Shown: positions 3,399-56,595, counted from the stretch's first letter. The stretch is 64,000 nucleotides of DNA from Burkholderiales bacterium (GCA_023701005.1 JAMPXW010000002.1:113053-177052), one strand, 5' to 3'. Program-made: numbers and translations. Notes: generated by a model not told the origin, from the sequence alone.

Positions 3399-4584
3399 CT
3401 CCTAAACAAACATCTTTATCATATAGAACACAAGACTGACCACTAGCAATCAATATCGGTTTTTCAAATATCAGTTTCGCGGAAGCCGGGCTTCCGCAAA
3501 TTATTTTACAAGGTAAAAATTCACCATGATAACGAATCTGAGCAATATATTCTTTATCAGGTCTTGGAATATCAGAAATCCAATTTGTATCTTTAATTTT
3601 CACAAAATACAAAGCAGAGCTTTTTTCGGCATACGCAATGGTATTGTCTTTTATTGTTTCCAGGTTGGAGTGCGGGCCGTGAAAAAGCTGCTGCTTTGTA
3701 TTTTGTGATACATATAAAATATTCTTTTTTAAATCCTTAGCAACTACATAATAAGCTCCATCATTCGGACTCTTTTTTGTAATTGTAAAACCATGTCTCT
3801 CTCCTAAGGTGTGAAAAACAACACCGTTGTGATAACCAATAACCTCTCCAAAGTCAGGCCCTTTTAAAAATTTAAAGTCCGACCTTATTACTTTGCCTTT
3901 TTTTTCTTTTATATAATGTTTTAAAAAATCTTTCAAATCTACTGCCCCCAAAAAACAGATTCCTTGACTATCTTTCTTTTCCGCCACAGGTAATTTAAAT
4001 TTATTTGCTAATTTACGAACTTCAGATTTTTTTAAATGACCGATAGGAAACAAAATATTTTTTAATTGTTCTTGCTTAAGAGTCCAAAGAAAATAACTTT
4101 GATCTTTAGAAGGATCTATTCCCTTCTCTAAAAAATAAAAATTTTCTAAATTCTTAAGATCGGCCCTTTTTGAAGATTTAAAGGACGACTTTTGAAAATT
4201 TGTATTTTTTGCATAATGTCCTGTAGCCACATAGTCAGCTCCCATTTTGATAGCTTTTTTCAAGAAAGCACCAAATTTAACTTCTTTATTACACATCACA
4301 TCTGGATTAGGAGTTCTTCCCATTTTGTATTCAGATATCATATAATCTGCAACCTCTTTTTTGTAAACATCTGAAAGATCAAAAGTCAAAAATGGAATAT
4401 CTAAAAAAGTAGCCACACGCATGGCATCGAGTCTTTCCTCTTCTTCATTGCATTCTAAAAAATCTGGATGCCACGTACGTATAAAAACACCAACGACTTC
4501 ATAACCTTGTCGTTTTAATAAAGCTGCTGAGACAGCACTATCTACACCCCCAGAAAGACCAACAAAAACTACCTTTTTCTCCAT
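3382..4584 (-). CDS. mnmA: tRNA-specific 2-thiouridylase MnmA
   Basis: PP-loop 'VGLSGGVDSAVSA', 400 aa, conserved Cys residues of MnmA. Confidence 0.85.
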   Translation of the reverse strand: MEKKVVFVGLSGGVDSAVSAALLKRQGYEVVGVFIRTWHPDFLECNEEEERLDAMRVATFLDIPFLTFDLSDVYKKEVADYMISEYKMGRTPNPDVMCNKEVKFGAFLKKAIKMGADYVATGHYAKNTNFQKSSFKSSKRADLKNLENFYFLEKGIDPSKDQSYFLWTLKQEQLKNILFPIGHLKKSEVRKLANKFKLPVAEKKDSQGICFLGAVDLKDFLKHYIKEKKGKVIRSDFKFLKGPDFGEVIGYHNGVVFHTLGERHGFTITKKSPNDGAYYVVAKDLKKNILYVSQNTKQQLFHGPHSNLETIKDNTIAYAEKSSALYFVKIKDTNWISDIPRPDKEYIAQIRYHGEFLPCKIICGSPASAKLIFEKPILIASGQSCVLYDKDVCLGGGIVI

Positions 4585-5257: not shown

Positions 5258-6214
5258 TTATTTTAAATATTTTTGTTTATTTATTTTATGTTCCTCAAAA
5301 GTCCTAGCAAAATGTACTTGGCCTTCTTTGCCATGCAAATAATAAAGATAAGAAGAATTCATCGGATTTATGGCCGCTTCGATAGCTTCTATCCCCGGAT
5401 TCGAAATAGGACTAGAGGGCAAACCTTTTGTTTTATATGTACTTGGCTCAGCATCTACCTGCAAAGGCATGCCAATAGAAATTCTCTTCCACAAAATCCC
5501 CGAGATCAACTTCCTGTCTTCATCTCCTTTAGATTCTTTTTCTAATATAGAAGCCATCGTTATTATATCTTTTTCTGTTTTCTTAGAAATATCTATTTTG
5601 GATTTAAACAATGCGATTTTTTTCTGAAAATTATTACTCATATATTCAATAACTTCTTCTTCTGTGTCTGTTGTTAAGAAAAAATAAGTATCAGGGAAAA
5701 GATATCCTTCTCTTGCTTTGGTCAAAAATTTATCTTTATCGAAATTAGGTAATTTAGTATCAAAAAGTTTTGATATCTCCATGAGATTAAAACCTTCAGG
5801 AACTGTGACTTTCACTGGAAGAAGGTTGTGTTCACCATTTGCTATACGTTTAGCTATCTCAAAAACAAATAATCTGTCTTCAAACATATAATCTCCAGAT
5901 TCAATATGTTTTTCTCCATCAAAAATTATGACAAATGTTTCGAAAATAGCTCTAGATTTTATAATATTATTTTTTTCTAAATCCCTAGACAAAGACCTAA
6001 GGCTAGAACCCTCTTTTATATTTATTATTTTTCCTACCGGGAAATCTTTAGGCACACTAAAAAAAAGAACATAAATAAAAAGAAGAAAAACGATAAAAAG
6101 GAGAAAATAAAACAATATCTTCTTTTGAAGAAATTTATTATTACCAAACTTGGACATTGAATGTCCAAGTGCTCCAAAATCTTGTATTTTATCTTCTTTA
6201 TTAAAATCTTCCAT
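5258..6214 (-). CDS. mltG: endolytic murein transglycosylase MltG (YceG-like)
   Basis: N-terminal TM, C-terminal 'LQVDAEPSTYKTKGLPSSPISNPGIEAIEAAINP' YceG signature. Confidence 0.75.
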   Translation of the reverse strand: MEDFNKEDKIQDFGALGHSMSKFGNNKFLQKKILFYFLLFIVFLLFIYVLFFSVPKDFPVGKIINIKEGSSLRSLSRDLEKNNIIKSRAIFETFVIIFDGEKHIESGDYMFEDRLFVFEIAKRIANGEHNLLPVKVTVPEGFNLMEISKLFDTKLPNFDKDKFLTKAREGYLFPDTYFFLTTDTEEEVIEYMSNNFQKKIALFKSKIDISKKTEKDIITMASILEKESKGDEDRKLISGILWKRISIGMPLQVDAEPSTYKTKGLPSSPISNPGIEAIEAAINPMNSSYLYYLHGKEGQVHFARTFEEHKINKQKYLK

Positions 6215-32591: not shown

Positions 32592-33671
32592 ATGAATAAA
32601 GAAGAAGTAGTTCAAGAAAATCTAGTATTGAAGTCTATTGTAGACAGAAGTGCTAGTAGGCCTGAAGTAGATTCTCTAGTAGAAGGACCTGTTATTTTAA
32701 TTGAGAAATCGTCTGTATATGTTGACCTTTCCCCTTTTGGAACAGGTATTATATACGGAAGAGAATTTATTAATGCAAAAGACATCATCAAAAAGATTAG
32801 TCTTGGTGACATCATAAAAGCAAAGGTTGTAGAAAAAGAAAATGAAAATGGCTATACAGAGCTCTCATTGAAAGAAGCTAAACAAGCTCTCACATGGAGT
32901 GAAGCTGAGAAAGCTATCAAAGCAAAAACTGTATTAGACCTAGAAATAAAAGATGCAAACAAAGGAGGTTTGATATTAGAATGGCAAGGAATACAAGGAT
33001 TCTTACCAGCTTCTCAATTGAAAGCAGATCATTATCCTAGAGTATTAGATTCTGATAAAGATAAAATTTTGAAAGAATTAAAGAAACTCGTCGGAGAAAA
33101 AATATCTGTTATGATCATTTCTACTCTTCCAAAAGAAGGTAAATTAATCTTCTCAGAAAAAGATAACAATCCTGAAGAGAAAAAAGAAATATTAAGCAAA
33201 TACAATGTCGGAGATGAATTGGAATGCACAATAGCTGGACTCGTAGATTTCGGAGTATTCTTGAAATTAGAAGACGGCTTAGAAGGATTGGTACACATAT
33301 CAGAACTCGATTGGGGTTTGGTTGAAGATCCTCGTACAATGTTTAAAGTTGGAGATAAAATAAGAGCGAAAGTTATAGAAATTAAAGAAGGTAAAATCTC
33401 TCTTTCTATCAAGGCTCTAAAGGAAAATCCTTGGACAGAATATGAAGGTAAATTAAAGAAAGGTGACATCATAAAAGGTGTCGTGATCAAATACAACAAA
33501 CATGGTGCATTGGTATCTATCAAAGAAGGTGTCGCAGGACTTGTACACAATTCTACTTTTGGATCTGAAGCTATGCTTCGTACCAAATTGGAACTTGGAA
33601 AGAACTACAATTTCCAAATTACACTATTTGAACCAAAAGAACACAAAATGACATTGGTGCATTTAGAATAA
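32592..33671 (+). CDS. rpsA: 30S ribosomal protein S1 (short, four S1 domains)
   Basis: repeated S1 OB-fold motifs ('GDIIKAKVV', 'GDELECTIAGLVDFGVFL', 'GDKIRAKVIEI', 'GDIIKGVVIKYNKHGALV'). Confidence 0.75.
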   Translation: MNKEEVVQENLVLKSIVDRSASRPEVDSLVEGPVILIEKSSVYVDLSPFGTGIIYGREFINAKDIIKKISLGDIIKAKVVEKENENGYTELSLKEAKQALTWSEAEKAIKAKTVLDLEIKDANKGGLILEWQGIQGFLPASQLKADHYPRVLDSDKDKILKELKKLVGEKISVMIISTLPKEGKLIFSEKDNNPEEKKEILSKYNVGDELECTIAGLVDFGVFLKLEDGLEGLVHISELDWGLVEDPRTMFKVGDKIRAKVIEIKEGKISLSIKALKENPWTEYEGKLKKGDIIKGVVIKYNKHGALVSIKEGVAGLVHNSTFGSEAMLRTKLELGKNYNFQITLFEPKEHKMTLVHLE

Positions 33672-33690
33672 AAATACTGAAACTAAATAC

Positions 33691-33722
33691 AAAAAAGCCC
33701 CCGCAGTAGCGGGGGCTTTTTT
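33691..33722. terminator. rho-independent terminator, GCCCCCGC-AGTA-GCGGGGGC, copy 1
   Basis: 8-bp G/C stem flanked by A6/T6; identical to 35177-35208. Confidence 0.75.
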
Positions 33723-33750
33723 GTATAAATATCTATTCTCTAAATTAAAA

Positions 33751-35061
33751 CTACGGAGCTGAAGTTATTGTCTCCCAAGTTGTAGTGTAAACATTTAATT
33801 TATTTGCTGTCGTATTGTAAATAACCATTCCGGCAGTTGGACTCGGAATCGCATCTCTCTGAGCCGTAGTCATTCGAGGAGGCATAAAAGCTTTGGTGGT
33901 ACTTGTTAAATCAACAATAGCATTTGCATTTGGACTCGTCGTCCCGATGCCGACGTTGCCATTGTTATTAATGAGCACTTTGTTATTCGCATATAAATAA
34001 TTGGACGTGCTCTCATTATATGCTGCAATAATTTGTTCATTGTCGTTATATAATCCTGATTCATTTGACGAAAAACTGCCTTTTGGTCTGATAGCGATCC
34101 CGCTAGAATAAAAACCGCCGCCTGAACCAACCTGGCCCTGTACTCCCAATGAATAATTTCCAAAGTCTTCATTGTAACTAGAGTTGCCGACCAATATGGT
34201 TTGGCCTGGTGTTGTTAATCTCATTCCGCCTTCAGGATCTATCCTTACGTAGCTGTTATAGTCAATAGTATCCCCGATGATCAATTGACCGATATTATTC
34301 CTATATATTTTCATGGATGAATAACCCAAAGGGTCGCTCCTTGTTTCCGGGAATTCAAATGCAACCAAATTATTAGTCCCGCCGACTGTAGCATTTCCTC
34401 GGAAGATCATAGTTCCATTTACATCTAACTTTGCTGCTGGTGCTGTAGTACCTATGCCGACGTTGCCGCTATTTGTAATTATCATTTTAGTTGCTTTGGT
34501 TCCAGTAGTGTTTGTGGTATCAAAAGTGATTTTAGTAGGAGTTATATTTGTACTTACTGTTCCATCCACCTTAAAATTTATTTCAGCTGCATCTTTATAT
34601 TGAGTTCCATCATGAGCTTGTGCCACCCAAGCCATTATAGTATCACCACTAACAACAGCTGTGGGACTAGCTGATGTACCCCTAGAACGTCCGATATGAA
34701 TAAAATTACCCATCCAACTAGTATCATTGTGTGCTTGTATTTTAACTTGATTGAGAGTATCTGCTTCAAAAAATATTGTTGGCGAAGAACTTGAAATAAC
34801 ATGCAGTTTCGCTGTTGGACTCGTAGTCCCTATCCCCACCTTCCCCGTCATCAAACCACCACCAATAATTATATTACCAGTAGTCGTAGTCGAACCTAGG
34901 TTAATATTTGAAGAAGCTTCACCATTTAGGTTAAGTGCTCCACTACTTGAAACAGTCAATGCTTCTAGTGTTAAGGCAGCATTGGCAAAACTTGCCCCTA
35001 TACCTAGAACCAAAAACAGGGCGACAATACCTATACTCACATATTTTAATTTTTTAGACAT
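33751..35061 (-). CDS. secreted Gly/Thr/Ser-rich surface protein with phage tail-fibre-like repeats
   Basis: signal peptide; repeated 'GNIIIGGG...GKVGIGTTSPTAKLHV', 'GNVGIGTTAPAAKLDV', 'GNVGIGTTSPNANAIVDL'; C-terminal 'MTTAQRDAI...GMVIYNTT'. Confidence 0.5.
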   Translation of the reverse strand: MSKKLKYVSIGIVALFLVLGIGASFANAALTLEALTVSSSGALNLNGEASSNINLGSTTTTGNIIIGGGLMTGKVGIGTTSPTAKLHVISSSSPTIFFEADTLNQVKIQAHNDTSWMGNFIHIGRSRGTSASPTAVVSGDTIMAWVAQAHDGTQYKDAAEINFKVDGTVSTNITPTKITFDTTNTTGTKATKMIITNSGNVGIGTTAPAAKLDVNGTMIFRGNATVGGTNNLVAFEFPETRSDPLGYSSMKIYRNNIGQLIIGDTIDYNSYVRIDPEGGMRLTTPGQTILVGNSSYNEDFGNYSLGVQGQVGSGGGFYSSGIAIRPKGSFSSNESGLYNDNEQIIAAYNESTSNYLYANNKVLINNNGNVGIGTTSPNANAIVDLTSTTKAFMPPRMTTAQRDAIPSPTAGMVIYNTTANKLNVYTTTWETITSAP

Positions 35062-35176
35062 ATACTATTATCCTGCAAGACTTTATGTAAAGCAGAATTA
35101 ATTAAATTAATAACAAAATAATTATAACTCCTATTGCCTTGACTTTAAATAGATGAAGTGGATAAAACTGTGTATA

Positions 35177-35208
35177 CAAAAAGCCCCCGCAGTAGCGGGG
35201 GCTTTTTG
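35177..35208. terminator. rho-independent terminator, GCCCCCGC-AGTA-GCGGGGGC, copy 2
   Basis: identical hairpin to 33691-33722. Confidence 0.75.
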
Positions 35209-35224
35209 TATTTTTAATTATTAT

Positions 35225-35842
35225 TTATGAACTTACTTTTCCTGCTATTAAATTCTCATCACCTATTTCATTCATTATGGAAATCACTTGATCTACGTAT
35301 TTAGGTACAATAGAAGGAGGATTGTAGGCTTTAAGTATTTCTCTAGTATTTTTATCAGCATAATGTCTCGCAGTATTAGGATTATTACCACCCAAGTTCT
35401 TAGCAACAGTTTCTATAGCTTGTTCATTAGATTTAAAACCTATCTTACAAGAACCCCAACCGAAAGAGTTATAAGTAGCTTTTATACAAGCAAACTTTCC
35501 TCCAGTAGATTCACGTACAGATATAGCAGCTAAAAGTCTCCAATCAAGGCCATTCTTCTCGGCTTCTTCTACCATTTTCTTACCCATGCCTTCCAAGGGC
35601 ATATCATGGTCTTTGAAATAAGTATCTATAGCTTCCGCTTTAGCCTTTAAATCTTTTGCCTCCTGGTCTAAAGCCTGGTTAAGGGCTAATACACCATCGG
35701 TCATATTCTCTTTTTGTATAAATACAGTTTGAATAGTCTCTTTCGCAGTATCTTTTATCATAGTTCCTAAAGGTACCGGCCCTGCCATAAGGGGAATAAA
35801 CATAAGAGATTGGGCAAACCGTATTAAATTGTTTTTATTCAT
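35225..35842 (-). CDS. secreted putative peptidoglycan hydrolase (glucosaminidase/lysozyme-like)
   Basis: signal peptide; 'GLDWRLLAAISVRESTGGKFAC...NSFGWGS' resembles glucosaminidase/FlgJ-type motif. Confidence 0.35.
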   Translation of the reverse strand: MNKNNLIRFAQSLMFIPLMAGPVPLGTMIKDTAKETIQTVFIQKENMTDGVLALNQALDQEAKDLKAKAEAIDTYFKDHDMPLEGMGKKMVEEAEKNGLDWRLLAAISVRESTGGKFACIKATYNSFGWGSCKIGFKSNEQAIETVAKNLGGNNPNTARHYADKNTREILKAYNPPSIVPKYVDQVISIMNEIGDENLIAGKVSS

Positions 35843-38895: not shown

Positions 38896-40569
38896 TTAAA
38901 TAACTTCTTTCTGATAACACTTTTCACAATACATAATCGGAGCCACTTCCTCAGTCAAATTTGTATAACATACTTTATTACAATTTGAACAATTGCGATT
39001 AAAAAACTTAAATGAGCCCCTACGAACTATACGGCCTTTATGCCTACAATAAAAGCACCTTCTTGGTATTGGCAAAATCATTTTACGATAAAAAGTAAGC
39101 TCTTGCATAGTTATCTTATAATTGCGATCACATTCTATACACTTAAACACTTCATTCACAACCGAATCTTTTATATCTTTGATATGATCTGGAATTTCTT
39201 CCGGGCTCATTGTTTCTTTGCCTGTTGTCATCTGTATATCTTCTTCCCATCTAAAACCTTGTGCCAAGGCTTCTTCTTTGGTTAAAGGCATATTATCTTG
39301 CCCAACTGTTTCATTATAAGCAAAAGGTGATATTTCTGGAGACATTATTAATCCATACATATCATCTTTTATTAATTCATCTATTATTTTATTTTTTAAT
39401 CTTTCATATTCATCCTTTTCATATTCCTTATTTAAAATAGCATATTGTCCATCTTTTAATGCATCACAACCAATACAATCCTTACATCTTCTTAAATCGA
39501 AACTATTTAAAATATTACTACAATTCTCAGCCCAATATGACCCTATAATATTATTGGAATGTCCTGTAGCAACAACTTCCAGCAAGCATTCTGATTTTGT
39601 CCCAAAACCAATTGTACCTATAGAATCTTTAATTAATTTTGAAGAAAAAATATAACGACAATTTTCTGACATAGCTACTTCAAATGAATTATGAATATTC
39701 TTACACTCAGAAAGATAATCCCCCGTAGAATCCACCGTCTTTAAATTGTTATTCTCTTTTCGTGGAAGTGTTTTACAAAATTCTATAAATTTTTTCTTGG
39801 CTTCTTCCATCTTTTTATAACTTCCCTTTATTTCTTTTATTTTCTTTTGATATTCTTCCGCGCTTAATTGTTCATTAAAATAACAATTACTTTTATTACG
39901 CAAATTTACACAGCCAAAACAATTTGTAAGTCCACTGCCGTTTAGAATAAACATGGAATCTAAGCAATTACTTATATTTTGACCCCATAATACTCCTGAT
40001 GATTCTTGGGCATTTATACATTCATAACAACGCTCAAATTTTACTCCAAAATAGACATCTGAAGAATCAAGACCATATCTCATTCCTCTCGAATATAATA
40101 ATTCTTCAGCTGGACCTCCATTAAAAACAAGATAACAATTCTTGCAAGCACTAATCATATTTGTATATTCACTATTTATACTAACTCCTCCTCCAGAAGA
40201 TGTCCCTAAATTAATTTTGGGGACTTTGATTAAAAGCTCTTTAAATTGGTCTAAAAATGAACGTGATTCATCGTACTCCATGGCATAATCTTTTGCATTC
40301 CATTTATCAGAATAAAAACAATCATAACAATAAATCTTATAAGGAGATTTAGGATTATACATAGATATAACAGATTTATTACACATATGACATTTTCTTC
40401 CTGTATATAATGTAGTTTCATTTCTCCACATCGCACGCATCTTAAAACGACAATCTGGGCAAAAATTTGGAGGAGGAACCTTCATTTTTTCATAAAAAGA
40501 AAAATCATCTTGTTCTAAAACAAAATCATTTTTACATTTATTACATTTTTTTATTTCAGATTCTTTCAT
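38896..40569 (-). CDS. 557-aa cysteine-rich protein: homologous N- and C-terminal zinc-ribbon modules flanking a CxxC/NC-repeat core; embedded between murE and murD
   Basis: N-term 'CNKCKNDF...FYEKMKVPPPNFCPDCRFKMRAMWRNE...CHMCNK...YCYDCFY' and C-term 'CIECDRNY...FYRKMILPIPRRCFYCRHKGRIVRRGS...CSNCNK...YCEKCYQ'; 13-nt and 3-nt gaps to neighbours. Confidence 0.6.
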   Translation of the reverse strand: MKESEIKKCNKCKNDFVLEQDDFSFYEKMKVPPPNFCPDCRFKMRAMWRNETTLYTGRKCHMCNKSVISMYNPKSPYKIYCYDCFYSDKWNAKDYAMEYDESRSFLDQFKELLIKVPKINLGTSSGGGVSINSEYTNMISACKNCYLVFNGGPAEELLYSRGMRYGLDSSDVYFGVKFERCYECINAQESSGVLWGQNISNCLDSMFILNGSGLTNCFGCVNLRNKSNCYFNEQLSAEEYQKKIKEIKGSYKKMEEAKKKFIEFCKTLPRKENNNLKTVDSTGDYLSECKNIHNSFEVAMSENCRYIFSSKLIKDSIGTIGFGTKSECLLEVVATGHSNNIIGSYWAENCSNILNSFDLRRCKDCIGCDALKDGQYAILNKEYEKDEYERLKNKIIDELIKDDMYGLIMSPEISPFAYNETVGQDNMPLTKEEALAQGFRWEEDIQMTTGKETMSPEEIPDHIKDIKDSVVNEVFKCIECDRNYKITMQELTFYRKMILPIPRRCFYCRHKGRIVRRGSFKFFNRNCSNCNKVCYTNLTEEVAPIMYCEKCYQKEVI

Positions 40570-49615: not shown

Positions 49616-49826
49616 TGCTGTTCTATGTTTTGTTTCGTTCTATAAACTTTTTTAATGTATGTCTTTCCACACTTGTCATAAAGTTTTAAGTTCTTAAAAA
49701 CTATTGTGTCGTCAATTGAGCGACACAATACCGACTCAATAAATTCAACCTCTCCGAGGTCAGTCTTCATTTGAGATGAAGAGCTCAGTACTGAAAAATT
49801 TCTTTTTCAGTATTGGAATATTTTCA

Positions 49827-51365
<1,539 letters not shown>

Positions 51366-51749
51366 CTAAAAGTTTAAATTACAAAGTAATTTACCCTTCA
51401 TAGTTCCGTTAGGAACGTAGTAGGGTTATTAATTCTGCTTCGCATAAAGCTACACAGAATAGATTTTACTTCATAAAATCTAGAACGAAACAAAACAAAA
51501 AACAGCATTTACTTAAGTATTTTTTGTCATTCGTTAGAGTTTAATATTTGCTCTAAAAATTATTCTACTTACTCAAAAAACATATTGAGACTTGCTACCC
51601 AATCTGATCTTATAGATTGGGGTTCTCAAGTTATTAACTTGTCAAAGATTGAAACAAAAACGCCCTATCAAATTGGTAGAGACGCTCAGGGGAAAGTATA
51701 TATCAAGCCGACTTCTATGTCAAGCACATAATTAACCTAAAAATACCTA

Positions 51750-51790
51750 TCTAAAAAAGACGGTCCTTGAAAAATTCTTCCAAGGACCGT
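51750..51790 (-). terminator. rho-independent terminator ACGGTCCTTG-(11 nt)-CAAGGACCGT + U-run (minus strand)
   Basis: 10-bp perfect stem; directly downstream of second Lys-rich micro-ORF. Confidence 0.65.
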
Positions 51791-51795
51791 TCTTT

Positions 51796-51855
51796 AAAAT
51801 ATTGTCTATTTTTTTGCCTTTTTAGGCTTCTTTTTCTCTTTTCTATGCCCGTCTC
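51796..51855 (-). CDS. 19-aa Lys-rich micro-ORF (MAKGDGHRKEKKKPKKAKK)
   Basis: ATG...TAG intact, terminator 6 nt downstream; 38 nt after stop of upstream surface-protein gene. Confidence 0.25.
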
Positions 51856-51893
51856 CTTTTGCCATAAATTTATCTTTTTAATTAACTAATAAT

Positions 51894-53108
51894 CTACTCA
51901 CAAGTCACTTCGTGGATCAATATATTATTATTCTCATTGGATTCTTCTATTTCTGAACTACCCCAGCCACAAGCATTATCTGCACAAACTTTAAGTGTAA
52001 ATTTATCTCCCTTCGAACAAATTGGAATCCACCAATCATTGTCAGTAGGAGGAGAACTAAATACCTGATATCCAAACAAAGTTGGACCAACGGCAGAACC
52101 GACACCCAAACTTCCAAAATACCAAGAACCAGCTTCATACTGATTGTTGACTGTCATTCTCACTGTACCTGCTCTTCCCGCAGAAACTTCTCCAATATTT
52201 TTTTCTATAAAATTAAAAACTGGTTTTGATCCGCTCTTCACCGTCGTTGCCCATGTGCCAACTTTCTCAATCACAAAGTCTGGTTTTTTACTACAATCTA
52301 CAAAAACATCTCCGGAGATTTCATTATTATTTTCACTAACTTCAGTTAAACCATTACCACCATCTACTTTAAAAACATAATGATTATTACCACAAGCTGG
52401 CCCATCCCAAATTTCAAAATTACTTGGAAGACTAATATTAGTATTAAGATAAGAACTTAAATCATAAGTACCATTTGAACTTGTTCTTAAAATTGAAAAT
52501 ATTTTTTTCTTAACTTCATAAGAAGAATTATAAAAAACATAATCATATTCCTTTTTACCTAAGTTAAGAATTTTTGCATTTAATGTTATAAATTTGCCTT
52601 GAGAAACTTCAGTGGGCCAAATACCAACTTTCTGAACACTCAAATCAAAATCATTAACACTGAGTGTATTTGGTATCGTTGGTTGAGATATATTATTTAT
52701 ATCTTCTCCATAAGAAGATTTTACTACCACATTAAAAGATGCACTTGCTTCCCCGCTATTACAATCTGAAACACCTAGTTTAACATTATATGTACCAGCC
52801 TTTGACCATCCATGACTTATTCTCAAATATGTATTTGCTTCTTTAGCAGGACAAACCTTGGAAAAAGAAGAACCATCTCCCCAATCCATAGACCAAGCCA
52901 AATTGTCACCATCAGGATCTCTAGCCTTGAAATTAAAAATCACTGGATCATCTGTATAAGCTACACATGATTGCCCTTTTATTAATTTATAACCTGAGAC
53001 AGAAGAACAATCAGGTAGAGAATTTTGCGCATCTAAAAAATTAATTTTAAAAACAAAAAAACTCAACACAAAAGCTACAACAAAAAACAATAATGTGTAT
53101 TTCTTCAT
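51894..53108 (-). CDS. secreted protein with PKD and CARDB-like domains
   Basis: signal peptide; 'NLAWSMDWGDGSS...GTYNVKLGVSD' PKD; two 'xVxKVGxWxTxVxxG' CARDB-like segments. Confidence 0.6.
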   Translation of the reverse strand: MKKYTLLFFVVAFVLSFFVFKINFLDAQNSLPDCSSVSGYKLIKGQSCVAYTDDPVIFNFKARDPDGDNLAWSMDWGDGSSFSKVCPAKEANTYLRISHGWSKAGTYNVKLGVSDCNSGEASASFNVVVKSSYGEDINNISQPTIPNTLSVNDFDLSVQKVGIWPTEVSQGKFITLNAKILNLGKKEYDYVFYNSSYEVKKKIFSILRTSSNGTYDLSSYLNTNISLPSNFEIWDGPACGNNHYVFKVDGGNGLTEVSENNNEISGDVFVDCSKKPDFVIEKVGTWATTVKSGSKPVFNFIEKNIGEVSAGRAGTVRMTVNNQYEAGSWYFGSLGVGSAVGPTLFGYQVFSSPPTDNDWWIPICSKGDKFTLKVCADNACGWGSSEIEESNENNNILIHEVTCE

Positions 53109-53130
53109 AATTTAATTATACCTTTTTATT

Positions 53131-56100
53131 TTATTTCAAGAAAGCACGTGAAAGAGGCCCAAATACACCATCTACCACAAGCCCATTCTTAGCTTGAAAA
53201 GCTTTAACGGCTTTTTCTGTAGCCTTGCCAAAGAAATTTGTCTCTTTTCCTTCTTCTATGCCTTCAACCTTAAAACCATTTCTGTTTAACAATCTCTGAA
53301 GGCATTTTACTTGAGGATCTGTCTTCCCATTTTTCAAAATTATATTAAATTCTCCACAACTTAATTCTTGAGTTTTTACTTCATTTTTTATGGTATTCGT
53401 TTCTTGTTTTTCTTTTGTATTTTTAACATCATCGAAAGCATCCAAGGCACTTGCCATTAAAGATGGCTTGGATGATGCATTCGCAGTAGAACAAGACAAA
53501 TTATATTTAGTTAAAAGATAAGAAACATCAGCACTATTTACAGAACCATTTCTATCTGCATCAGCTCTGTTTTTCTGATCATCTGTAAAAGTTGTCGTTC
53601 CGACAAGGTATTGCATAATCATTGTCGTATCTTTACAATCCACGATACCATCTCCGCTCACATTTCCAAAGACTACTTCTGAAACAGCACATGTGGTATA
53701 ACCTGGAGTTACTGAACTTGACACCCTAGATTCACCCGCACTATTGTAGGCAACTATATTATATGAATATGTAGTATTACATTGAAAACCTGCTAAATCA
53801 GAATATGTTGTAACATTTGGACCAAGTGTAGCTAATAAAGAATTATTTTTATATATTTTAAAACCTGTTTCATTGTTTGAAGTATCTGTCCATGCAAAAT
53901 TTATTGAACTTGTACTAGCACTAGTGATGCGGAAACTTGCAGGTGTCAAAGGCAATTCTACTGGTATTACTTGAGTGCCTACAGTTATCTTTGCAGAAGC
54001 AGAAGCTCCTCCTCCAGCACCAATACATGTAAGAGTGTAATTCTTTGATGAAGTTAGATAATATCCTGCAACCTCACTTCCACTTGTTGCAGATTTTGGA
54101 CCTGACCAATCACCTCCTGCTGTACAAGATGTCGCATTCTTCACTACCCAATTGATCGTCGCCGTACCATTGTAAGATACTGAATCTGGAGAAGTGAAGA
54201 AAGAAATAACAGGAAGAGGAACGACGGGTGTTGTTTGTGGCAAAACATTTATTGTCACATAACTCGTCCCACTTGTGCCACCCGCGCCAGTACATTTAAG
54301 TGAAAAAGTTGTTGTTTTTGTCAGACTGCCTGTAAGCATATTTCCAGATGCAGTTTTGATACCTTCGTATGTACCATCACTTGCTGTACAAGATGTCGCG
54401 TTAATCGAGCTCCAATACATATTCGCCGTGCTTCCATAATCAACTGTCGTTTTATCTGAATAAAAATAACTTACAACTGGAACTGGAAGAGAAGGAATAG
54501 TATTACCTATAACCGTTATACTTAAATTTTTAGAATCACTTTGACCACTAGCATTTGTAGCACTAAATGAAGCTGTATATGTTCCTGCTGTACTATATGT
54601 ATGTGTGAAAGTAGAAGATGGCATAAATGATTGTCTTTGACCATCTCCCCATTCGACTGTATAAGAAACAGCTGTAGTACTATATGCATTTATTTTCCAT
54701 GTACCCGCAGTATTTGCATTGATCGATGTAGGTCCTGATACATCTGAAATATGTGGAGCGGTTGTACTTGTTTTTTGTAAACAAACACCATCCCCTGCTC
54801 CATATTCACATTTTATATTAGTATTTGTTGCATAACTAATACCATTTGTTGTAGTAGGGTCAGTACAAATCCATTCTATGACATAAGAATAACCATCTCC
54901 ATAAAAATTAGCTGGACGAACTGAGTCTGTTTGGTTCTTCATTATTCCATCTGTTCCTAATCCACTTATTGTTCCTTTTATATATTCATTATTCCCATCA
55001 GTATCTAAACAAGCAACAGATGGTTGTTTTTTAGGAACAAGAGTAAGTGTAGCAATATCTGATTTTACTCCTGAACTATTCACACATTGTAGTGTATATT
55101 TTTTTGTCGAAGTTATACTAGCCGTAGGCATACTTCCAGAAGTGGCCTTTAAACCAGAATATGTTCCATCACTTGCTGTACAAGATGTCGCATTAGCAGA
55201 AGCCCAATGTATCGTGACTGTCTCACCATATACTACTTCACCTGGCGTGGTCTGAGGTAGGTAGTAGAAAGAAGTTATTGTAGGAGTTGTGGTGTTTGTA
55301 GAAATGATAGTGAATGTCCCATTACTTTTAAATAAATCTGAAGAACTAACTGATCCATTTAAATTCGTTTCATAAAAGGCATTTATTGTATATTGTCCAG
55401 CTGGCATATTTACAGGAAATGTATACTGCATTGAACCAGAAGTATCAGGATTATTTTGAACTCGTGCGGAAGTTGAGTAAGTAGAATCATTTTTATAAAA
55501 ATTTATATAAGTAAGTCCTGGAGCACCCGGAGTCCATTTAATTGTTATCGTCTGACCTGCTGAAAAAATATCACCAACTTTTGGTGAAAGAACAGATATA
55601 GAAGAAACGCCTACTTTAACAGAAACACTAGCTGATCCAGTTTTTCCATTACTATTAGTAACAAAAAATTTTGGTCCGTATGTACCTGCTTTTAAATAAT
55701 AATGTGTAAAAGTTGCCGATTGTTGAGATGATCGCCAAGCTTCACTAGCATCAGTATCTCCGTCATCTCCCCAGCTAACATAATATGTAAGATTTCCAAC
55801 ACTTGAATCAGAAGCATTTACTGTCCAAGTCCCTGTTTGATTTACATTTAATGTTTGTGGACCAGAAACACTTAAAACGACAGGAGTAGTTGTAGTTTCT
55901 TCCACTTTCACACTCAAGCTTGTCTGTGTACTTTTTCCACTACTATTTGTGACAGTAAATGTCGGATTATATGTTCCAGCTTTACTATATGAATGAATGA
56001 ATGTCGCTGTTTGTCCTGTTTGTTCTGGTGTGTATGCCATAGCACAACTAGCCCCTGAAGGACATGTAAGTGTGACATCTCCCCAATTTACAGAGTATGT

Positions 56101-56595
56101 CAAATTTCCACCAGTTTTATCAGAAGCTTTTATTGTCCATTTTCCATTTTGTCCTATATTTAATGTCTGAGGACCTGTCGCACTCAAAATTGAAATTTCA
56201 TTTGTAATAGGGTCTTTATCTGGATCAACAACTATCTCCCCTCCACAAGAAGCACTTTTTATTTTTGCTTTCGTCGCTGGACCCACATATCCTGTAGGAC
56301 TAATATTATTATCTTTTTGAAAATCTTTTACGGCTTTAAGAGTTAAAATTCCAAAATATCCAGTCGGTTCTGAATTCAAATATCCCTTAACTTGCAAAAA
56401 ATCTTGAAGAAGAGAAACTTCCCCATTTGTATTTGCATCTCGTGCTCTATATCTCAAACCAGAACTTTGCAAAGAGATACAATCTGATGCTGTAGGATTA
56501 GGATCGACATCCCCTACTTGTGCAAAAGAGAAACTTGGGATAACAAGAACAGTTAGAAACAAAACTGAAAGAAAACCCAATATGTATTTTTTCAT
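53131..56595 (-). CDS. 1154-aa cell-surface protein: PG-binding domains at both ends, multiple PKD repeats, FN3, dockerin-like repeat
   Basis: 'LQDFLQVKGYLNSEPTGYFGILTLKAVKDFQ' and 'AVKAFQAKNGLVVDGVFGPLS' (PG_binding_1); '...WGD...AGTY...VTNS.GKS' x3 (PKD); 'DADRNGSVNSADVSYL' (dockerin). Confidence 0.65.
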   Translation of the reverse strand: MKKYILGFLSVLFLTVLVIPSFSFAQVGDVDPNPTASDCISLQSSGLRYRARDANTNGEVSLLQDFLQVKGYLNSEPTGYFGILTLKAVKDFQKDNNISPTGYVGPATKAKIKSASCGGEIVVDPDKDPITNEISILSATGPQTLNIGQNGKWTIKASDKTGGNLTYSVNWGDVTLTCPSGASCAMAYTPEQTGQTATFIHSYSKAGTYNPTFTVTNSSGKSTQTSLSVKVEETTTTPVVLSVSGPQTLNVNQTGTWTVNASDSSVGNLTYYVSWGDDGDTDASEAWRSSQQSATFTHYYLKAGTYGPKFFVTNSNGKTGSASVSVKVGVSSISVLSPKVGDIFSAGQTITIKWTPGAPGLTYINFYKNDSTYSTSARVQNNPDTSGSMQYTFPVNMPAGQYTINAFYETNLNGSVSSSDLFKSNGTFTIISTNTTTPTITSFYYLPQTTPGEVVYGETVTIHWASANATSCTASDGTYSGLKATSGSMPTASITSTKKYTLQCVNSSGVKSDIATLTLVPKKQPSVACLDTDGNNEYIKGTISGLGTDGIMKNQTDSVRPANFYGDGYSYVIEWICTDPTTTNGISYATNTNIKCEYGAGDGVCLQKTSTTAPHISDVSGPTSINANTAGTWKINAYSTTAVSYTVEWGDGQRQSFMPSSTFTHTYSTAGTYTASFSATNASGQSDSKNLSITVIGNTIPSLPVPVVSYFYSDKTTVDYGSTANMYWSSINATSCTASDGTYEGIKTASGNMLTGSLTKTTTFSLKCTGAGGTSGTSYVTINVLPQTTPVVPLPVISFFTSPDSVSYNGTATINWVVKNATSCTAGGDWSGPKSATSGSEVAGYYLTSSKNYTLTCIGAGGGASASAKITVGTQVIPVELPLTPASFRITSASTSSINFAWTDTSNNETGFKIYKNNSLLATLGPNVTTYSDLAGFQCNTTYSYNIVAYNSAGESRVSSSVTPGYTTCAVSEVVFGNVSGDGIVDCKDTTMIMQYLVGTTTFTDDQKNRADADRNGSVNSADVSYLLTKYNLSCSTANASSKPSLMASALDAFDDVKNTKEKQETNTIKNEVKTQELSCGEFNIILKNGKTDPQVKCLQRLLNRNGFKVEGIEEGKETNFFGKATEKAVKAFQAKNGLVVDGVFGPLSRAFLK

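Follow-up and report, generated by a model that had tools for sequence, protein, structure and literature searches.

A gene for a protein resembling a phage tail fibre lies, within a chromosomal stretch of 64,000 nucleotides (GCA_023701005.1 JAMPXW010000002.1:113053-177052, here called the window), between two nearly identical hairpins and beside a gene for a putative cell-wall hydrolase, which raises the question of how it came to stand among housekeeping genes and whether it works together with its neighbour. A first interpretation made from the DNA alone (the sequence-only reading) had proposed that the hairpins mark a duplicated cassette boundary and that the two genes form an adhesin and hydrolase module of the kind found at a phage tail tip. 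We found a closely related strain in which the fibre gene and one hairpin are missing, and relatives in which the hydrolase gene keeps its place although no fibre gene is present. Our reading is that an exported fibre is encoded on a strain-variable insert between duplicated terminator hairpins and that the hydrolase is separate, and we put the probability of this reading at about 0.7.

Occupied and empty versions of the locus

The clearest evidence comes from contig L007 (Logan SRR28423913), whose DNA aligned with the window at 95.5% identity on the hydrolase side and 92.9% on the side of the S1-domain gene. This contig carries the hydrolase gene, one hairpin and the S1 gene, and no fibre gene; its two blastn high-scoring segment pairs overlap on the single hairpin, which maps to both copies in the window, and positions 33721-35173 of the window have no counterpart in it. 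Taken with one copy of the hairpin, the segment absent from L007 makes up an insertion/deletion that has direct repeats of a terminator-shaped hairpin at its ends, and the duplicated cassette boundary proposed earlier is upheld by this empty site with a single hairpin in a near-identical strain. The insert is about 1.45 kb long, has clean boundaries and contains a single gene, with neither an integrase nor a transposase in the insert or in the rest of the window. Insertion is favoured over loss as the direction of change, because the fibre gene is missing from this site in more distant relatives and because the fibre gene has both the highest GC content and the highest GC content at third codon positions (GC3) among the 35 genes of the window. 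Its GC content is 0.397 (mean 0.325, standard deviation 0.027) and its GC3 is 0.304 (mean 0.219, standard deviation 0.031), about 2.7 standard deviations above the window mean in both measures.

Two further observations concern the same site. The hairpin of the empty site (L007:875-906) has stems identical to those in the window, and its 4-nt loop is the reverse complement of the loop at 33689-33720 and 35174-35205, which is a small inversion within a perfect palindrome. In L003 (SRR23907158; the same strain from another sample), the contig ends 31 nt into the insert, which fits assembly trouble at a polymorphic site and proves nothing by itself.

The two hairpins form a direct repeat with a start-to-start spacing of 1486 nt. 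The window contains the 20-mer GCCCCCGCAGTAGCGGGGGC at exactly two places (33697-33716 and 35183-35202), in agreement with the identical 20-nt hairpins with U-runs described before, and 100 shuffles gave zero matches; the shared repeat proved to be longer, 38-40 nt of the form ATACAAAAA(A)GCCCCCGCAGTAGCGGGGGCTTTTT(T)GTAT at 33687-33726 and 35174-35211. The 20-mer is also richer in GC than the earlier estimate of about 75%, at 85% (17/20) in a window of 32.6% GC. Both hairpins have perfect stems of 17-18 bp and a 4-nt loop, with an A-run before and a T-run after, and on each strand their RNA folds with an energy of -31 to -32 kcal/mol (z = -7.5 to -8.8). They lie 13-24 nt past stop codons, hairpin A between the converging S1 and fibre genes, and the pattern of a GC-rich stem-loop followed by a U-run is present on both strands, so that both have the shape of bidirectional intrinsic (Rho-independent) terminators. 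In the whole window they are the sole repeat pair of at least 26 nt and at least 85% identity. We rejected independent convergence of two hairpins, as the 40-nt copies are 95% identical, including their flanks and the orientation of the loop.

The hairpin core by itself appears to have no diagnostic value. A search with its 26 nt in collections of genomes, metagenomes and viral contigs, which did not include the source genome, gave eight matches. Seven lie in unrelated contigs of 51-70% GC, among them Chitinophagaceae, a gammaproteobacterium and three near-identical high-GC contigs, and in the two high-GC matches whose neighbours were read the core stands behind unrelated genes (glutamine synthetase III and isocitrate dehydrogenase). 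The eighth is L010:175-200 (metagenome contig Ga0172379_10088904, 34% GC), and the viral contigs gave no match. Since the core occurs in unrelated genomes and in none of the viral contigs, its sequence alone would not mark a mobile element; elsewhere it looks like an ordinary terminator. In L010 the core sits between the end of nusA and a converging gene for a secreted protein of 388 amino acids, which is preceded by a phage-like gene matching phrog_3030, and the flanks of this hairpin are unlike those in the window.

Both open reading frames (ORFs) of the locus, encoding 436 and 205 amino acids, lie on the minus strand, a correction to the earlier description, and along this strand the order is murC, hydrolase gene, hairpin B, promoter-like site, fibre gene and hairpin A (Table 1). 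The surrounding content is chromosomal, with gyrA, the S1-domain gene, three Mur ligases, a solitary 16S rRNA gene and five tRNA genes. In GenBank, identical proteins (P0001, P0121) are filed under a metagenome-assembled genome (MAG) labelled "Burkholderiales bacterium", in which the locus tags of interest are NDI62_02320, NDI62_02325 and NDI62_00040, and all close homologues come from Nomurabacteria/Paceibacterota. Because the 32.6% GC, the gene content and every close homologue indicate Nomurabacteria/Paceibacterota, which are part of the Candidate Phyla Radiation (CPR), the source organism is probably a CPR bacterium and the label wrong.

Table 1 Features of the fibre locus, with positions counted from the first nucleotide of the window
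Feature	Position	Strand	Remarks
S1-domain RNA-binding protein gene	32592-33671	+	Converges on hairpin A; conserved right-hand neighbour of the slot
Hairpin A	33687-33726		18-bp perfect stem, AGTA loop, A-run on one side and T-run on the other; -32 kcal/mol on both strands
Strain-specific segment	33721-35173	-	Fibre gene with its own promoter region; with one hairpin copy a 1486-bp unit
Fibre gene	33751-35061	-	436 amino acids; predicted to be secreted, probably trimeric, beta-helical, of the phage-tail-fibre/MAT kind
Motif 3 GNVGIGTTSPNANAIVDL and C-terminal PTL_trimer (PF26696), residues 368-436	33754-33960	-	pLDDT 90-96
Variable region, residues 222-367	33961-34398	-	pLDDT 38-58; no confident model, no specific homologue
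Beta-helix module, residues 125-221	34399-34689	-	Homologous to the MAT beta-helix of Bd1334/Bd2439/Bd2133/Bd3182
Motif 2 GNVGIGTTAPAAKLDV	34420-34467	-	Closes the beta-helix module of residues 125-221
Capping-loop-type motif 1 GKVGIGTTSPTAKLHV, residues 73-88	34798-34845	-	Identity with paralogue P0011 breaks down here
N-terminal stalk module, codons 29-72	34846-34977	-	Forms a constant N-terminal unit with the signal peptide
Signal peptide, Sec-type, codons 1-28	34978-35061	-	MSKKLKYVSIGIVALFLVLGIGASFANA; read from sequence
Promoter-like site TTTAAA-17 nt-TATAAT	35121-35149	-	Within the insert, with the fibre start codon 60 nt downstream; consensus match only
Hairpin B	35174-35211		17-bp stem; core and loop orientation as in hairpin A; 13 nt past the hydrolase stop codon
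GH73-like (glucosaminidase-fold) hydrolase gene	35225-35842	-	205 amino acids; core gene of the mur neighbourhood, outside the cassette

The fibre protein and its relatives

The product of the strain-variable gene is related to phage tail fibres and to the mosaic adhesive trimer (MAT) fibres of Bdellovibrio bacteriovorus, which Caulton et al. 2024 (PMC10769870) showed to be trimers exposed on the surface and akin to the S74 fibres of phages. Among the PHROG tail-fibre families it matched phrog_9942 (E = 2.3e-18) and phrog_18345 (E = 3.7e-18), and a sequence search of the PDB with HMMER returned only MAT fibres, in which residues 125-221 aligned with residues 914-1013 of Bd1334 (8OML) at E = 5e-17 and Bd2133, Bd2439 and Bd3182 matched as well. 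The alignment extends from the "full beta-helix" of Bd1334 to its capping loop, where GNVGVGVGAPTAKMDVNG of Bd1334 pairs with GNVGIGTTAPAAKLDVNG of the fibre protein. An AlphaFold2 (AF2) monomer model built from 55 sequences was confident for residues 140-220, with a predicted local distance difference test score (pLDDT) of 78-94, and for residues 385-436. When this model was searched with Foldseek, MAT fibres took all of the first 14 places among the PDB matches and the T5 L-shaped tail fibre came next, and BFVD gave 148 viral proteins at E <= 1e-3, many of them annotated with the S74 intramolecular chaperone domain. Sequence profiles, crystal structures and structural search agree in supporting the tail-fibre-like assignment made earlier, and the structural comparison proposed for both proteins was led here by MAT fibres and the T5 fibre. 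Local Pfam and NCBIfam searches gave nothing for the fibre protein (no Pfam match at E <= 1, in a library without the PF26696 model), and the S74 chaperone domain (PF13884) was absent at the same threshold; some homologues, such as P0015, carry it. In tblastn against 50,697 phage records we obtained only five weak partial matches and no close cultured-phage donor, and a scan of viral contigs for close relatives gave matches only through the C-terminal module.

The protein begins with a signal peptide, as had been noted before, which we recognized by inspection from a basic n-region (KK-K), a 14-residue hydrophobic core and A-N-A at positions -3/-1, with cleavage expected between MSKKLKYVSIGIVALFLVLGIGASFANA and the following A. 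Three G(K/N)VGIGTT(S/A)P motifs start at residues 73, 199 and 368. The sequence-only reading had given them as three copies of 'GN(V/I)GIGTT(S/A)P.AKL(H/D)V'; the number stands, but motif 1 begins with GK and motif 3 continues with NANAIVDL. Judged from sequence, these GxVGIGTTxP motifs are the capping-loop motif that punctuates fibre shafts, for which the consensus in MAT proteins is V-G-G/N-pi-x-x-P-x-x-x-L (PMC10769870). In giant fibre proteins, an exhaustive search found up to 26 copies of the motif.

The C-terminal tail PPRMTTAQRDAI...GMVIYNTT is present as described before, where it had been taken for the tip of the fibre. It belongs to PTL_trimer (PF26696), which is recorded in precomputed annotation on the identical database protein P0001 (100%) and on most homologues, and the near-invariant residues of the family, P395, R396, M397, A404, G411, Y415, L422 and W429, are all present. 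Many proteins that differ elsewhere end in a sequence 77-88% identical to residues 380-436. The module was found in 109 of 120 homologues, in up to five copies per protein, with 69 copies at the C-terminus and 90 in internal or N-terminal positions, so that in the family it is not simply a C-terminal tip. At least 562 stretches of IMG/VR viral contigs encode it, and in the five viral contigs inspected it closes proteins of 537-1112 amino acids. Foldseek gave weak local matches over about 45 residues with the collagen XVIII trimerisation domain, CBA120 TSP3 and Mtd. No paper describing PF26696/PTL_trimer turned up in our literature search, and its function is presumably the one that the family name states. 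Given its high conservation and repetition, the module is likely to be a folding or trimerisation unit and not the determinant of specificity, and the label of tip given to it earlier is therefore only partly apt: the sequence is there, but it is widely shared, often repeated, conserved and not obviously involved in specificity. The candidate for the ligand-binding part would more likely be the variable region in front of it, residues 222-367.

The family occurs in phages as well as in chromosomes. In L100/L101, members stand in a clear tail module (tape measure, a protein of 161 amino acids, fibre, DUF1833 and NlpC/P60-like), and another member lies in a phage-like gene string of L102. Neither of the two homologues examined from a phage context begins with a signal peptide, whereas all chromosomal singletons examined (the fibre gene of the window, P0003, P0113, P0075, P0082, P0088 and the genes of L013 and L098) have a basic, hydrophobic signal peptide with A-x-A. 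Since the signal is present in the chromosomal versions and absent from those in phage context, a phage-type shaft has apparently been put behind a Sec signal for export. A paralogue on another contig of the same MAG, P0011 (NDI62_00040), is 100% identical over residues 1-70, remains similar up to the first capping motif, is unrelated beyond it and has no PTL_trimer module, a pattern pointing to a recent recombination event close to the first capping motif. Furthermore, an exhaustive search of representative sequences found the N-terminal module, at 42-59% identity, in six more short proteins of 243-379 amino acids.

Taken together, the fibre would consist of a Sec signal with a constant stalk, a beta-helical shaft with three capping motifs, a variable stretch and the PTL_trimer end. 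Its chains would be exported through Sec, crossing the membrane unfolded, and the C-terminal module would nucleate trimerisation, after which the fibre could stand on the cell surface and bind a surface structure of another (host) cell. The gene, with its own promoter, would have been set into the bidirectional terminator between the hydrolase and S1 genes. As there is a hairpin on both sides, each flanking transcript would still end at a hairpin, and with each hairpin ending transcription from both directions the insert would leave its neighbours undisturbed. Recombination between the hairpin copies could delete the fibre gene again, allowing loss or regain. In this model we infer trimer formation, surface display, the role in adhesion and the termination activity.

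The neighbouring hydrolase

The second gene encodes, by structural prediction, a divergent GH73-like cell-wall hydrolase, which agrees with its earlier description as glucosaminidase-like. The protein scored 24.7 bits against Pfam PF01832 (Glucosaminidase), and about half of its listed orthologues carry PF01832, several of them under the name "glucosaminidase domain-containing protein". The core of the AF2 model (residues 50-200) has a pLDDT > 90, and the best Foldseek matches were the GH73 enzymes LytB, TM0633, Auto, FlgJ and AtlE with a probability of 0.96-1.0, so that the structural comparison is again led by the fold that had been suspected. With these enzymes it shares the predicted lysozyme-like alpha fold and the conserved, presumably catalytic Glu; across 54 orthologues E111 (in RESTGG), GWGSC, NLGGNNP and the tail YNPPS...Y...V..M are invariant. 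A lytic transglycosylase, suggested by an E-S motif and a weak match with MltF, was ranked below GH73, whose structures lead the fold search. The catalytic domain is preceded by a long helix and a strongly conserved N-terminal hydrophobic segment. Residues 1-20 (MNKNNLIRFAQSL.FLPFMTG) are almost invariant across the 54 orthologues, which one would not usually expect of a plain signal peptide and which may point to a particular role in anchoring or interaction.

The gene order of relatives separates this enzyme from the fibre. The hydrolase has 1436 homologues, the best 120 of them at 60-100% identity (Nomurabacteria/Paceibacterota). In L004/L005 (Nomurabacteria; hydrolase 68% identical) the order is murD, a hydrolase-fold gene, murC, the GH73-like gene, the converging S1 gene, Lactamase_B_3, a small ORF and gyrA, which is the order of the window except that the fibre gene is replaced by a 137-nt spacer with a different, AT-rich hairpin. 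In L006 (81% identical) the slot is filled by an unrelated gene of 171 amino acids with its own terminators. The murD-murC-hydrolase / S1-gyrA setting is thus kept in L004/L005, L006 and L007, all without a fibre gene. Conversely, fibre genes at six other chromosomal loci have no hydrolase nearby; among the sites are, in L012, the position after rplL, in L013 one by a RAYT-like gene, in L015 the gap between obg and gatB, in L098 that between dnaE and the HU gene, and in L097 a position upstream of several small ORFs and ribonucleotide reductase genes. Gene order gives no support to a module of fibre gene and hydrolase, and the hydrolase is a conserved, separate gene that evolves independently.

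Some other features of the window were recorded in passing. A gene at 38896-40569 on the minus strand encodes a cysteine-rich protein of 557 amino acids with many CxxC pairs and no Pfam match; it sits between the murD-like gene and another Mur ligase gene and is not at that position in L004/L005. In the region 49616-56595, the solitary 16S rRNA gene (49827-51370) has no 23S gene to accompany it inside the window; the two arms of a 27-nt inverted repeat (49616-49642 / 51481-51507) stand on either side of it and presumably form a processing stem. Next to it are genes for large surface proteins of 404 amino acids (PKD and CARDB) and 1154 amino acids (two PG_binding_1 with PKD, fn3 and dockerin).

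Flanking repeats at other loci, alternative explanations and known systems

Repeats around fibre genes are found at other loci too. The self-comparison with the thresholds used for the window was extended to 146 kb (the window and ten loci). Apart from two low-complexity AT-rich pairs and one pair that is the capping motif inside a fibre gene, all repeat pairs lie beside fibre genes, in the window, L012, L013 and L098. L012 has a pair of hairpins of 34-40 nt around two fibre genes. In L013 the fibre gene stands between the arms of a 53-nt inverted pair, and its neighbour lies between the copies of a 47-nt direct pair. In L098 a 102-nt direct repeat (3723-3823 / 5267-5367, 91% identical) consists of the last 31 codons and the stop of dnaE, copied past the fibre gene, and the arrangement resembles a long target duplication made without a hairpin. 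The same comparison gave no flanking repeat pair in L015 and L097. Flanking duplications of 34-102 nt were present at 4/6 chromosomal singleton loci examined. As a side observation, the region directly after the two hairpin-bounded fibre genes of L012 (L012:7919-10759) contains HTH_17 (excisionase-like), three small genes without assignment and a large gene that matches T4SS_pilin weakly, and may be part of an integrated conjugative element.

These recurrences allow a broader proposal, which we regard as speculative and rather doubtful at present, that the chromosomal fibre genes of CPR bacteria are single-gene surface-protein cassettes which enter terminators or gene 3' ends with long target duplications. 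If it were true, the repeats would let a cassette loop out and re-enter, giving a switchable and exchangeable repertoire of host-recognition fibres. A transposase of the HUH/RAYT type acting on hairpins is one candidate enzyme for such movement.

An unlikely alternative makes the hairpins REP-like mobile palindromes (REP, repetitive extragenic palindrome) of an IS200/RAYT-type HUH transposase, with the fibre gene a passenger that moves, or was captured, by way of these palindromes. It draws on L013 (Nomurabacteria GCA_001786875), where L013:4060-5853 contains, within 1.8 kb, four copies of the hairpin AAAAACGGAAGC-CTT/AAG-GCTTCCGTTTTT, of the same A-run/stem/T-run kind, which bracket a RAYT/IS200-like gene and the adjacent fibre gene in alternating loop orientation. 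The neighbouring protein of 231 amino acids has HFH and YIHLNP motifs and reaches 22.2 bits against Pfam Y1_Tnp (cut-off 23), one hairpin copy lies in frame inside this transposase-like ORF, and the whole layout resembles a REP/RAYT arrangement. The loop orientation also flips between L007 and the window, and L012 adds a third hairpin pair. The window, however, has only two copies and no RAYT-like gene (tblastn with the 231-residue protein of L013 over the 64 kb), the repeat of L098 is the 3' end of dnaE, the 26-nt core recurs in unrelated genomes, high-GC ones and others, as a terminator of the ordinary kind, and excision of the IS200/IS605 type would leave no hairpin at an empty site.

Both remaining explanations start from the phage-like character of the fibre and are less probable still. 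That the gene is the last remnant of a decayed prophage, unused by the cell, would agree with its homologues in phage tail modules and many viral contigs and with its atypical composition, but we consider it improbable: the intact ORF begins with a Sec signal peptide, as in the chromosomal singletons examined and unlike the two phage-context homologues, the gene comes with a promoter-like site and a terminator of its own, the annotated neighbours (gyrA, the S1 gene, the GH73-like gene and the mur ligases) include no other phage gene, the insert with its clean boundaries measures only 1.45 kb, and the N-terminal module is common to the paralogue and other short cellular fibres. Least credible of all is the domesticated phage tail-tip module of the sequence-only reading, a host-binding adhesin with a wall-degrading enzyme. 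The adjacency of the two genes on one strand, the phage-like fibre beside a GH73-like fold and the fibre of the same family near an NlpC/P60-like gene in the tail module of L100 had made it attractive. It is largely refuted by synteny, in so far as gene order can tell, because the hydrolase stays beside murC in relatives without the fibre gene, is a core gene judging from its many homologues, and is missing from the surroundings of other chromosomal fibre genes; besides, a strong terminator hairpin and a separate promoter-like site stand between the two genes in the window.

The reading that we prefer, an exported fibre on a strain-variable insert with a separate hydrolase, also has points that weigh against it. 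The direction of change was derived from parsimony and composition, and loss in L007 by recombination between the repeats would give the same picture. Signal peptide and export were assigned by inspection only, and the retention of the fibre on the cell is not explained by them. The AF2 model is weak overall (mean pLDDT 63), leaves residues 222-367 unmodelled and describes a monomer only. MAT fibres have about 1000 amino acids, compared with 436 here, and a conserved beta-rich N-domain of about 130 residues after the signal peptide, where the fibre protein has only about 44-45 (residues 29-72). As for the hydrolase, its PF01832 score stays below the gathering threshold of 30.2 bits, and its Foldseek E-values are only about 1e-2 to 0.3.

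If the preferred reading is correct, the fibre protein is a candidate host-recognition molecule that could be tested against glycans or candidate host cells, and the hydrolase is an ordinary conserved cell-wall enzyme. To our knowledge, the hosts of Paceibacteria are mostly unknown. One preprint describes host recognition and attachment in CPR/Patescibacteria as largely unknown outside the type IV pili of Saccharibacteria (bioRxiv 10.1101/2024.11.25.624915), and our literature search found no paper linking MAT-type fibres to CPR bacteria. The fibre gene varies between strains that are about 95% identical at the locus, and paralogues keep the N-terminus and swap the rest. The clean pair of occupied and empty sites, together with the recurring flanking duplications, provides a case for the gain and loss of surface genes in a minimal genome.

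Among known systems, the arrangement of the insert has partial parallels in two. Elements of the att type, which enter terminators or the 3' ends of genes, likewise have direct repeats of the target around the insert and a one-copy empty site, as in L007, and the L098 repeat is likewise a duplicated gene 3' end; REP/RAYT systems are matched in L013 by a RAYT-like gene flanked by the same hairpin. Unlike both, the unit here is a single gene on 1.45 kb, and the repeat varies by locus in length and type (34-102 nt, hairpin or coding).

The protein, in turn, stands between MAT fibres and phage tail fibres. Like the MAT fibres it has a signal peptide followed by a fibre, a beta-helix with sequence homology and the same capping motif, and they are its best structural matches; the mosaic logic of a constant N-terminal end with exchangeable distal parts recurs in P0011, and the owner would live on or from other bacteria, as its CPR affiliation suggests. 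MAT fibres differ in having diverse tips (S74, TNF-like, lectin and a novel sandwich) instead of the conserved PTL_trimer C-terminus, and in belonging to a Gram-negative predator, whereas here display and binding are predicted for a CPR cell. CPR bacteria are thought to have a single membrane. We call the fibre protein MAT-like in its working and not a member of the MAT family as defined. With phage tail fibres (the T5 L-shaped tail fibre pb1, PDB 4UW7/4UW8; PHROG 9942 and 18345) it shares the shaft architecture and the capping motif, and it shares the PTL_trimer C-terminus with viral-contig proteins and a tape-measure-linked tail module. Unlike them, it has a Sec signal peptide, no S74 and no phage neighbours, and its gene stands in a housekeeping region with its own promoter-like site and terminator. 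What is new, going by its sequence, is that a CPR bacterium has a relative of phage tail fibres and MAT adhesins that is short, apparently exported and closed by PTL_trimer.

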